Positions 4,399 through 13,545 of a stretch of DNA of 64,000 nucleotides are shown in pieces. The DNA comes from Phallusia mammillata (lineage: Eukaryota). Location: NCBI GenBank assembly GCA_965637545.1, contig OZ281501.1, positions 3,348,001 to 3,412,000 on the forward strand. Reading direction: 5' to 3'. The notes beneath the pieces were generated by a model. That model was not told the DNA's origin, did no database searches, and worked only from the letters and a program-made list of their open reading frames with translations. The translations under genes and the position numbers were made by a program. Within the stretch, counting starts at the first letter, position 1. The number at the start of each line of letters is the position of its first letter.

Positions 4399-4443
4399 AT
4401 GAAATCGTTGTGCGCGTTGCTCTTTGGACAATACTTGTCACTG
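4399..4443 (+). CDS. candidate exon 1 (signal peptide N-part, MKSLCALLFGQYLSL) of secreted beta-trefoil/IL-1-like gene A
   Basis: ACC-ATG context, hydrophobic 15 codons, phase-0 GT donor (weak, CTG|GTTTTC) with an in-frame stop just after; joins the phase-0 acceptor at 6167 to give a continuous signal peptide ..LSL-VFVFLSNFITNTSG|RS. Confidence 0.5.
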
Positions 4444-4548
4444 GTTTTCACATAAAAAAACTTCAGACGTGTCTTTGCATTGGAAATGGTAATTGTCTAA
4501 AAATGTGTACACAAAGATGCCAATAGTTATTTTGAATGTAAGAGCGCA

Positions 4549-4600
4549 TGGTGACCGGCTTATTTGGTGTGACACATTCACTAGGCCTGGCGTGCTTTGA
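4549..4600 (+). repeat. diverged SINE core fragment
   Basis: TGGTGACCGGCTTATTTGGT..AGGCCTGGCGTGCTTTGAT similar to the 2863 and 11590 copies. Confidence 0.55.
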
Positions 4601-5257
4601 TAGTTTTTTTCAAGTTGTCATTAAAACAAGGTTGACTAGATGAGAATTTAAGTGAAGAGGGAAAGTGTTTTTGTTTTCATAGAGATAAGACTAAAGGGCT
4701 TTTGCTTAAGTGAAGGAGGCGTACTAATAGGTTTTGGCACGCATTCAAACCTGAATTGCAATTTTCATCTAAATAAACAAAAAATTTTTTTACAGTATCG
4801 CAAAGAATTGTTTCAGAAATTGCTTTTCGGAACAGAAACTGAACCGAACTTCTAACTAAGTTTTTTTAAATTTATTCTAACAGGCCATTCTAAGTAAAAT
4901 GGATACATGGGGATTTCTCCTGATTTTAATGGTACGAAAACACATACATTTTGCCTTGTTCGCTGGGTCCAAATCAGTCTTCGGGCTGTTTCATGTGCTT
5001 AAAGACGAAATATATCACTAACAACTTGCTGGTTTGTTACCTGTAGCTCCACACGCCTTTCCTTAACACAAGCGGTTATTATTTGTTCTTCGATCCAGCA
5101 GTAGTGTTTGCACAGTACGTCAAACCAACTTGAGTTTCCTGTATTGCCCTTGGTTTTTGCGCTCCACGACATTCAAACATTTGTCGTCTTTTTAGACTGA
5201 ATGATTGCTGCAATTCTATTAGTTTTTCACAATCGAAAATACTCAACTTATCAAAGA

Positions 5258-5420
5258 ACGCCAAGCCGATTGAAGGCGTTATACCGAATCAGTCGGTCAC
5301 CGAGCATTCACCACCATATGGAAAAACGTATAGGCTAGAAAATCCAGCCTGTGGTGGGATTCGAATCCAAGACAGGAGTCTTTTCAGGACTCGCGCTCTG
5401 CCAACTGATCTACACGACTC
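5258..5420 (-). mobile_element. tRNA-derived SINE (head plus core)
   Basis: Minus strand: A box TAGATCAGTTGG (5412-5401), B box GGATTCGAATCCC (5368-5356), followed by the core repeated at 2863, 4549 and 11581. Confidence 0.7.
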
Positions 5421-5460
5421 AGTGGAGAACCCGCCTTATGTTGAATCACAAGCATCGTTG

Positions 5461-10740: not shown

Positions 10741-11516
10741 TCAAGCTAGATCCACGTCCCACATATCAACTCCCGAATGGTGTTCTGTCAAAACCAGCTT
10801 TGATTCGTTGCCCAGTGCAACTGAGAGTAAGGTTCCTGATCGATTATTCCACGTAGAGCTGGGATGAAGAAACCCGAAACTTGCTCCACCTGTCCGCGTC
10901 ACATTGAGGACAAAAAGCCGGGGATCGCTGGTGTCAGAGTCGACGTCCACGTCCAGAGGGTCGCCCCATTTGCGTTCCGGTGACAATTTGATTTCTTGGC
11001 TGTCGGTATCACAGACAACGTATTTACGCTTTGAACGTACTGTAACAGCAAACATAAACGTGAGTGGAAATCCTGGCCTGGTTGAGCCAAATTGCCATCG
11101 TATGATAGGGTTTCCGCCATCGACTATTCGGAGTCCCCCTTGTGCCCCCCAGTGCCTGCCAAGCGTGGCGTGTCGAACGTAGCAATCTCTTTCTTCTGAG
11201 ACCCCGGCTTCTAATTCACAAGCGTGAGTTAGGGTGACCGGAGTTTCGCAGACTGGCGAGCCTATGAAGTTCTGCAGAAAATCGGTAAAGTGTTGCGTAA
11301 CCTTGCACTTTTCGCGAGGTTTTGGACTCGTGGATTTTGTTTCTGTTTCATCACTGGTCGCCTTTAGATTCATTTTCTTCATATCGGCCACGCCCGAGTA
11401 ACGCCGCACCGTCTGTTTTACGGATTCCTCTTCAATTATAAAACTTCGTCCGTTTTCGGTTTTAGTCTCTAATCCACAATTTGCACGGGTCGCGAGTTGT
11501 TCTGTCTCGAGTTTGA
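10741..11516 (-). CDS. exon 2 of gene B: leaderless precursor with C-terminal IL-1-family-like beta-trefoil (272 aa in total)
   Basis: Longest ORF in the window; minus-strand acceptor TTTATATTTTTCAG| phase 1; C-terminal ~147 aa shows CYVRH, GFPLTFMFAV..KYVVC, EIKL, DPRLFVL, FLHP, LLSV-x7-LVL, DMWDV, paralleling IL-1b/IL-18 strands. Confidence 0.75.
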
Positions 11517-11580
11517 CTGAAAAATATAAATAAACAAACTTGAGCATGTGTTTATCACGGCACGCTCATAAATATAAATT

Positions 11581-11645
11581 GTGAATGCTTGGTGACCGGC
11601 TGATTAGGTATGGCGCCTTAAATGGGCCTGGCGTACTGTGATTTA
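11581..11645 (+). repeat. SINE core fragment in the gene B intron
   Basis: GTGAATGCTTGGTGACCGGCTGATT..CGCCTT.AATGGGCCTGGCGTACTGTGATTTA matches 2863 and the reverse complement of 5258-5312. Confidence 0.7.
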
Positions 11646-13502
11646 TAATATAATATGTTTGTGTGAACCCAAAATATTTAATATCTCATTTCACACCTGC
11701 CTTCTTTATTTGCGATAGTTTAAGTTTTTTGGTTTTCGACTGTCGTATAAAAAAGGGGGCTGTCAAAACGTCATGCTTGACTCAAATTATTCTTCAAAAA
11801 ATATAAAATTTGTTTCTTGGCACAGGTGATTAAATCTTGCACAATTAGCACGCGATCAAGCGTGCCATCAGAAACTTGTGGGATCTCATCCCATCTCGGG
11901 TTTCGTTTAAGGAAGCTTTGGCTATTTCCTTAAAAGTCCTTTAACCGATTATGGACAAAGATAATGCAAAATTGTTTCATATAGAAAGCACCTTGACGGA
12001 TAACTCATTGTGAGCAAAATCTATGGTTAAATAGGGCGTTTTTTAGACCCCCAAGAAAAACGTTTTTTCCCTAGGTTGATAAATATACTCAAAGGTTCTG
12101 TTGTAATGGTGTAAAAAATGGTGACTTGGGGGGTGACATAGTTCGGTTTCACTTTCTCTACGTATCTATGCAAACGATACATTGATGTATCATCACCGTG
12201 ATCACGCCTGTTTGACCCAACAGGGTTCATAACCACCTGACCCGTTGAGCTCATCAAGGCACAGCGCGTTTCCCAATCTTAACGCGTCATACGATTCGAG
12301 TTAACTGCACCAATGTGACGTCATAAAGCCCTTTGTCATGTGGAACATCCGCTTGAATCGGTTTGTGACGAAGCGTTTACCACGTACCACAGTTTTACAT
12401 GTTGCTACAACGAAGCTCGAAATTGTGGGTAGAGCCCAACAGCAATTGTACATGTTAAATGCTGTTATGGTTCATAGGTCATTTAATGAGTGATATCTTG
12501 GTTGCGTTAGCTGACACTGTGCTGCCGATGCGTGGTTTTAGTAAAGCGGTTGTTGCACAATTTTGATTTACCCGATTTTAGAATTAACAAACCATTTACT
12601 ATTCACATCAGAGCAAAATATCAAATTAGTTTTAGTAAGTTTTTGACCTAAACGAGTTAATATTTATAATTGTAGCTGCTCAGGGGTAGAAAACGGCCTA
12701 CTACCTACTACTACTCTAAAAGATAACCACAGCTTTTATATGCTTAGAATTTCAAGACAGTTTTTTTCAGGTTTGGGTTAGTAGAAAATTGATGCCGAGT
12801 TAAAAAGAACCGAAAAAGTCACCAAACATATTAAGGCTTCTGCTTTAAGTGAAAGTCAATTAACACCAAATGTCATTAACAAGTGACGACAGCTCGTTGT
12901 AATCAACTGATTGTGTTCGGAACATTTACACAAAAATAACGTTTCAACATTGCGCAGCTATATAACTTCGGATGCAACATCAGTCACTCCTGTAGACTAA
13001 AGTACCCAGTACCACAGCATCGGGGGTAAGCTAGAAAAATCAGGTTAAGCTATAAATAAAGCTAGCTTGAAATGTCTTGACAAGCCAGTAAAGTTACGAA
13101 GGTTGTAAAATCAGGGTCGTAAATCTTAGACCAACCGACACAAATTTAGGTCTTAGCCAAAACGGTAGCGTCCTTTGTTGGTTTCAACCGAACTGAGTAA
13201 TGCTTATTATACAACCACGTCTATTGCAGTGTCTATGTTTGATTTTAGAGAGTTTACCTTATCGTAAAAGTTATCAACCTCTTCTTAAGTACAAATGCTC
13301 CAAGCTTTTGCTAAGACTCATTTACCACACTATTAAGAGCAAAGTTTAAGGTTTTTTAAAATTGCTAAATAAGATAATAAATGCCAATATCTATGTGCAA
13401 AGCATTGCGGCTTTTTAACATTTTGACAATAGTAAAATGCAACAATGTTTTGCACTAAAAATGTTTGTTTTTGCTTTTAACAAGTTTATAAAAGCAGCTT
13501 AC

Positions 13503-13545
13503 CTTCTGGGAGCCCATTTTCCTGCGATAGCTGCCTGCGTTCCAT
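13503..13545 (-). CDS. coding exon 1 of gene B (MERRQLSQENGLPE)
   Basis: ATG at 13545-13543, consensus donor AAG|GTAAGC, phase 1, joins exon 2 in frame (G+TC = Val). Confidence 0.75.

Follow-up and report, generated by a model that had tools for sequence, protein, structure and literature searches.

A six-gene ascidian array of leaderless, predicted IL-1/IL-18-like trefoil genes and basic genes with signal-peptide exons in Phallusia mammillata

Among the closest described systems to the locus reported here are members of the interleukin-1 (IL-1) family. IL-1anc has been traced across Eumetazoa in a survey that took PDZ domains and the (F/L)ES motif as its entry points and gives 'no candidates' for Ciona, Botryllus and Styela; the N-terminal PDZ domain of IL-1anc is absent in a subset of members (Fontenla-Iglesias et al. 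2026, PMC13736523). Lamprey, according to the same source, has three IL-1 genes in tandem; one carries a signal peptide, and an IL-1Ra-like role has been proposed for it. The window analysed here, 64,000 nucleotides in length, is C8:3,348,001-3,412,000 of the 240 Mb genome of the ascidian Phallusia mammillata, and positions given without a contig name are positions in it. Two genes of the window, A (+) and B (-), were found to be the right end of an array of about 51 kb in the order B2(-) B3(+) A2(+) A3(+) A(+) B(-). Gene B encodes a leaderless protein with a predicted IL-1/IL-18-like beta-trefoil, and gene A a basic, apparently secreted protein whose main domain is likely a divergent trefoil.

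Genome searches with A and B as queries each returned two extra genes, adjoining upstream and none elsewhere, and searches repeated with the paralogues as queries (four genome searches in all) returned the same array only; the copy counts of both types are lower bounds. A search for more paralogues upstream of the window had been proposed in the sequence-only reading of this DNA, and four were found there, 4-38 kb away:

B2, C8 3,310,441, minus strand: B-type, leaderless.
B3, C8 3,316,505, plus strand: B-type, leaderless.
A2, C8 3,326,270, plus strand: A-type, with signal-peptide exon.
A3, C8 3,343,880, plus strand: A-type, with signal-peptide exon.

The domain is held in one exon in all six genes, and a Phallusia mammillata protein record, whose name is taken from Ciona LOC100187150, agrees with B2 at every residue. 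Genes A and B converge, as had been read, with 4,067 bases between their stop codons (TGA at 6671-6673 (+) for A, 10741-10743 (-) for B). Antisense overlap of the two was rejected because B contigs end at 9931 and the first AATAAA of A is at 7240. B2 and B3 stand head to head, so the orientation of the array was taken as a product of inversions and not of design. In addition, a recent tandem duplication of 16-18 kb gave rise to A3 from A2 and left behind a truncated extra copy of A:

1..6092, plus strand: right-hand copy of the duplication, by comparison with the left-hand copy.
L011:1346 to L012:372: left-hand copy, in pieces 84-99% identical to window 1-6092.

In the left-hand copy the signal exon of A is present, the duplicate ends 75 bases before the main exon, and the main exon is missing; the signal-exon donor could in principle splice to the main exon of A3. 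The tail-to-tail pair that had been proposed as a unit is thus the end of a longer, rearranged array.

The structure of gene B was read by comparison with contigs of four runs, which carry no condition labels. Its intron was joined in contigs from 2 of the 4 (X1 and X2, two studies), spanning 13594/13623 to 10029/9931; B was without contig cover in the other two, and such blanks carry no weight as evidence, here or for gene A. The features are:

13503..13623, minus strand: exon 1, with ATG at 13545 and a 43-nt coding part (14 codons and one base), from RNA-type contigs.
11517..13502, minus strand: intron of 1,986 nt, GT..AG, phase 1, joined in contigs of runs X1 and X2.
10741..11516, minus strand: coding part of exon 2, holding the rest of a pro-piece of about 117 residues and the whole predicted IL-1/IL-18-like beta-trefoil.
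9931..10740, minus strand: 3' untranslated region to the limit of contig cover (9931 in X2, 10029 in X1).

The B protein is 272 residues long and its N-terminus is not hydrophobic (the highest hydropathy of any 12-residue stretch among residues 1-40 is -0.23), which bears out the earlier call of a leaderless protein. The pro-piece is of low complexity with one helix conserved across the family; the B3 open frame has a short N-terminal piece only.

An AlphaFold2 model of B from a 14-row alignment (predicted local distance difference test (pLDDT) 69.4, predicted template modelling score 0.67) gave an all-beta domain behind one helix, in which the predicted trefoil (model residues 35-189) falls entirely within exon 2; a single-sequence prediction reached pLDDT 33. 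The modelled domain is a beta-trefoil, and human IL-18 accounted for every one of the 13 Foldseek matches with E<=0.001. On re-alignment, IL-18 scored Z 11.4 (root-mean-square deviation 3.3, 127 aligned residues) and the first 16 rows were IL-1 family members, with the best non-IL-1 trefoil, the lectin HA33, at Z 9.7 and the best FGF at 9.1. A structure search made without Foldseek placed IL-33, IL-37, IL-1alpha and IL-1Ra in the top four rows (Z 10.1-9.6), and Atlas features of B also pointed to the trefoil clan. The structural match starts at IL-18 residue 2, the mature N-terminus, which corresponds to B residue ~118, and B is therefore read as a pro-piece of about 117 residues followed by a cytokine domain. 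The D-P-R-x-F motif of the B family and the strands preceding it line up by eye, unscored, with 'NDGRVFF' of amphioxus IL-1anc (PMC13736523, supplement); A2 and A3 carry 'HDGRYF' at the same position.

A profile of B, B2 and B3 searched against 1.84 billion proteins returned 13 matches, from which P0003 and P0010 were dropped as bacterial repeat proteins, leaving 11 relatives. Four of the 11 are named clusters, from Phallusia, Ciona intestinalis, Ciona savignyi and Styela clava, all of them ascidians and all 'uncharacterized', with Ciona LOC100187150 and Styela LOC144425170 as named family members. A word-index homologue search with B gave no match. B is closer to P0002, from elsewhere (48%), than to its array neighbours B2 and B3 (support 87/95, not starred), which indicates that the split inside the array is old. 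Seven metagenome loci carry three B-type paralogues from another animal, with the domain in a single open frame in all three; no A-type match was found in their short flanks (<=10 kb upstream, 0.4-6 kb downstream) with a three-sequence A profile. B2 and B3 are under purifying selection, with a ratio of nonsynonymous to synonymous substitution rates (dN/dS) of 0.22 (p 1e-12).

Like the B family, IL-1anc has a leaderless C-terminal trefoil that is nearest to IL-1 by structure search, shows lineage-specific multi-gene expansions, and by eye has the D-x-R-x-F strand motif. Vertebrate pro-IL-18, pro-IL-1beta and IL-33 share with B an N-terminal pro-piece without a signal peptide and are its best structural matches. 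Basic clusters in the pro-piece, as in B, are also a feature of nuclear alarmins. On fold and architecture the B family is probably IL-1-like, a divergent IL-1 homologue, and gene B looks like a leaderless IL-1-type pro-cytokine.

Several results weigh against this assignment. Identity of B to IL-18 is only about 15%, the model is of moderate quality (residues 167-179 below pLDDT 50), and in the Foldseek-free search botulinum HA33 scored Z 9.4, level with the IL-1 rows to within 1 Z. No family member gave a match to Pfam IL1 (PF00340) or the IL1 propeptide; the B family gave no PDB sequence match, and three-sequence profiles searched against PDB sequences returned chance matches only. Scans of B, B2 and further family members detected no PDZ domain, the first exon of the B transcript having 14 codons only, and the strand-9 (F/L)ES motif of IL-1anc is absent from the B-family alignment, with L-x-P in its place. 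In IL-1anc the trefoil is divided among 3-5 exons and two of its intron phases are conserved, versus one exon in the B family. Linkage to ESD was not found, ESD being on C7 and the array on C8. Finally, no Asp residue lies directly before the B trefoil, where a caspase-1-type site was looked for: Asp residues are at 59, 70 and 93, and a Glu directly precedes the modelled trefoil start. This missing boundary Asp, the single-exon domain and the low identity set B apart from the vertebrate pro-cytokines. Some IL-1s are processed by proteases other than the caspase-1 type (PMC13736523).

Most of these points could also be read as signs of a tunicate-specific trefoil, lectin-like or intracellular, that is no cytokine and whose likeness to IL-18 arose convergently on a shared fold. 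The margin over HA33 is 0.2-1.7 Z and depends on the library, and the lack of an FES motif, PDZ domain, conserved introns, ESD linkage or Pfam match would suit such a protein. Convergence is nevertheless rather improbable, since the IL-1 family ranked first in two programs and two libraries, the alignment runs from the IL-18 mature N-terminus behind a pro-piece of similar length, and there is the by-eye motif likeness to amphioxus IL-1anc. The absence of a PDZ domain, (F/L)ES motif, trefoil introns and ESD linkage would also explain why the IL-1anc survey missed the B family; because of the same absences the family is described here as IL-1-like and is not filed as an IL-1anc member. No report of the B family as IL-1-like was found in the literature covered, with subscription journals and bioRxiv supplements outside that coverage.

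With regard to the linkage check, no family member was found in 100 kb around ESD, and the only candidate near it was rejected as an exon of a membrane protein. GCC2 was indistinguishable among the 6 GRIP matches in the genome when the IL-1anc neighbours (ESD, GCC2 and IL-1R) were looked for, and the flanks of the array consist of BEACH, sugar-transporter and collagen exons. At C7:20.29-20.33 Mb, ESD, a neighbour of IL-1anc genes in other phyla, and an FGF gene stand some 40 kb apart.

Gene A was assembled from splice signals and from its paralogues, the same donor site and phase being present at the signal exon of A2 and A3 (no contig covered A in the four runs). Its expression is presumed on the same grounds. 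Its features are:

4884..4931, plus strand: signal-peptide exon, with an acceptor before 4884, ATG at 4899 and a phase-0 GT donor after 4931 (splicing inferred; donor motif and phase also in A2 and A3).
6167..6673, plus strand: main exon, encoding the end of the signal peptide and a basic mature domain of about 154 residues, likely a divergent trefoil.
4399..4455, plus strand: frame of 18 codons closed by TAA, where the sequence-only reading had placed the start of A; the likely start is 4899.

Joined in phase 0, the two exons encode 179 residues. On this predicted splicing the N-terminus is strongly hydrophobic (hydropathy 3.17) and resembles a classical signal peptide, in line with the secreted form that had been proposed. 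The mature domain has a net charge of +16, an isoelectric point (pI) of 9.9 and six N-x-S/T sequons, and all three A-type frames are intact. Word-index searches with A and with the A alignment returned no A-type relatives outside the genome. The earlier statement that each gene holds its whole trefoil in a single exon stands for the predicted trefoil of B; for A the domain is in a single exon, and profile scores suggest rather than establish that it is a trefoil. Upstream of A2 and A3, at L010:5330-5500 and L012:2570-2740, a conserved stretch was noted that looks like a signal-peptide exon with a broken frame and a GTAAGT donor at its end; it may be a 5' exon or the remnant of a further secreted gene.

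A and B have no pairwise sequence similarity, and their relationship was assessed with profiles. The B-family profile aligns colinearly to A along some 100 columns, and A has the identical residue at 6 of the 9 B columns that are most conserved. A version of the profile free of Phallusia rows scored A at 9.6 bits (0/2000 shuffles as high), A2 at 4.3 (p 0.003) and A3 at 4.7 (p 0.0045). A also has the D-x-R-x-F and L-x-P motifs and the single-exon layout of B, and all three A-type and all three B-type genome matches are confined to one array. Since the A genes are nested between B genes and share their layout, and since a profile free of Phallusia sequences scores A above all 2000 shuffles, we consider it likely that the two types have a common, local origin, as the earlier proposal of a local duplication had it. 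A window frame at 1223-1396 (-) scoring 9.8 bits was rejected as a member, being 58 residues long and without the family motifs.

The following observations count against these readings of the A type. The hhalign probability for A versus B was 0.3-1.9%; with the reciprocal A profile the best B protein reached 6.6 bits, no better than reversed ones at 6.2; and an unrelated membrane-protein exon scored 10.1 bits on half of the B profile. Atlas matches for A were below 0.9 and Ig-like, with no trefoil. A2 scored with an FGF exon-2 profile as well (7.1 bits, p 0.002). The leaders of A2 and A3 are only moderately hydrophobic (1.8), and the A2/A3 dN/dS of 0.67 is not significantly below 1 (p 0.10).

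Signal peptides and basic clusters are a common pattern of FGFs. Together with the exon-2 score, this would suit an A type that is FGF-derived, or an unrelated secreted heparin-binding protein standing in the array by chance beside an IL-1-like B; the hhalign values below significance and the absence of a trefoil in the Atlas matches for A point the same way. A-type proteins are, like FGFs, apparently secreted, basic and of trefoil size, with one strand-hairpin motif scoring with FGF exon 2. This origin is unlikely, given that the FGF exon-3 profile scored 0 of 3 A proteins (p 0.14-0.49) and the matching half of the B profile 3 of 3 (p 0.008-0.014), and that A has the motifs and layout of B. 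Moreover, the array locus is not among the 17 genome matches to Pfam FGF, and the real FGFs of this genome match exon by exon on other contigs, with introns splitting a domain that is without introns in the A type.

If the two types share an origin, what A does relative to B has to be considered. The sequence-only reading had suggested a possible agonist/antagonist module reached independently of the vertebrate IL-1b/IL-1Ra pair; in such a module A would occupy the receptor of B without signalling. Leaderless and signal-bearing genes do stand in one array and are likely homologous, and the same switch lies behind IL-1Ra of mammals and IL-1.1 of lamprey, and the lamprey protein has been proposed to be an antagonist (PMC13736523). 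Antagonism needs a shared receptor surface, against which the opposite charges (net +9 to +16 and pI 9.6-10.0 for A-type domains; most B-type domains acidic, with net -3 for B, -14 for B2 and -6 for B3) and the near-total divergence argue; the divergence is far beyond that expected of a competitor pair. There are, besides, three genes of each type and no pair, and a signal peptide by itself is no proof of an antagonist. We regard the antagonist proposal as improbable and unsupported. Independence from the vertebrate pair is plausible, and a claim to be first is not, the lamprey tandem cluster with a secreted member coming before it (PMC13736523). The lamprey and hagfish IL-1.1 to IL-1.3 cluster and mammalian IL1RN resemble the array in being IL-1-like genes in tandem, some of them having acquired a signal peptide and being without a PDZ domain; they differ from it in that here three genes are of the secreted type, strongly basic and barely alignable to their leaderless neighbours.

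The explanation that we favour, at about even confidence, is that the B-type genes encode IL-1/IL-18-like trefoil pro-cytokines and that the A-type genes are secreted offshoots of local duplication, acting as basic glycan-held signals and not as antagonists. IL-1alpha, IL-33 and IL-18 leave cells on damage or after proteolysis. By analogy, the B-type proteins (B, B2 and B3), with basic clusters in the pro-piece, would stay in the cytosol or nucleus until damage or proteolysis sets them free. A domain held in a single exon would make the switch to a secreted form easy: once a copy without introns lands behind a short signal exon, the secreted A type would follow in one step. A-type proteins, being basic and in gene A putatively glycosylated, would be retained by sulphated glycans and have a local action. 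A bolder version is doubtful: in it the ascidian PDZ-less IL-1/IL-18-type cytokine family with a pro-piece is the sister of the classical vertebrate IL-1s, and the Phallusia copies, which would modulate or block the leaderless form, represent a secreted IL-1 that arose independently for the third time, IL-1Ra and cyclostome IL-1.1 being the other two cases.

Genome scans with TIR and TIR_2 returned Toll-like-receptor-like genes, single-exon receptor-like genes and cytoplasmic TIR proteins. No Ig-TIR receptor was identified among the 13 TIR loci read, the scans being lower bounds from which absence is not implied, and the two best Ig_6 matches resemble repeats of titin/obscurin type. A review states that a putative IL-1 receptor gene has been identified in Ciona (PMC5465252). 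A genome scan for gasdermin, likewise a lower bound, gave no match. Among the receptor genes read were two neighbouring tandem receptors, each in a single exon, with 810 and 1136 codons at L062:3781-6210 and L063:3310-6717 (C5:27.65 Mb), with a weak TIR_2 match and IL-17-receptor-like by reading, and Toll-like-receptor-like genes, single-exon at L060:3530-6745 and L061:3708-6905 and multi-exon at L034 and L035. At C4:0.5-2.2 Mb at least 16 TIR_2 matches are clustered in an apparent local expansion of TIR proteins.

The main value of the locus lies in the family and not in the tail-to-tail geometry: it would be a likely tunicate IL-1-like lineage with secreted offshoots, in the one chordate group without reported members. 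Ciona LOC100187150, from a tractable model animal, Styela LOC144425170 and the Phallusia array are candidates for the gene behind the decades-old tunicate 'IL-1-like activity'. They also bear on the timing of PDZ loss on the way to IL-1beta and IL-18, and on how often a leaderless alarmin becomes a secreted protein.

The neighbourhood was read on both sides of the array. From about 45,500 to 64,000 (+) the window holds a multi-exon collagen gene, with Collagen repeat matches at 57760, 60819, 61858 and 62288. Its N-terminal exons look thrombospondin-N/laminin-G-like, which we take to mean a collagen of XV/XVIII type, and an exon of this region at 49004-49390 gave a weak RGM_N match (E 0.43). 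The left flank (L065 and L004-L008, C8:3.25-3.30 Mb) carries a neurobeachin-like BEACH/DUF4800/DUF4704 gene and two tandem sugar-transporter genes, with a P-type trefoil exon at L005:7971 that is unrelated to beta-trefoils. Window segments 14408-14471 and 6730-6960 are short dispersed repeats that drew many contigs from all four runs and are not genes of the locus.

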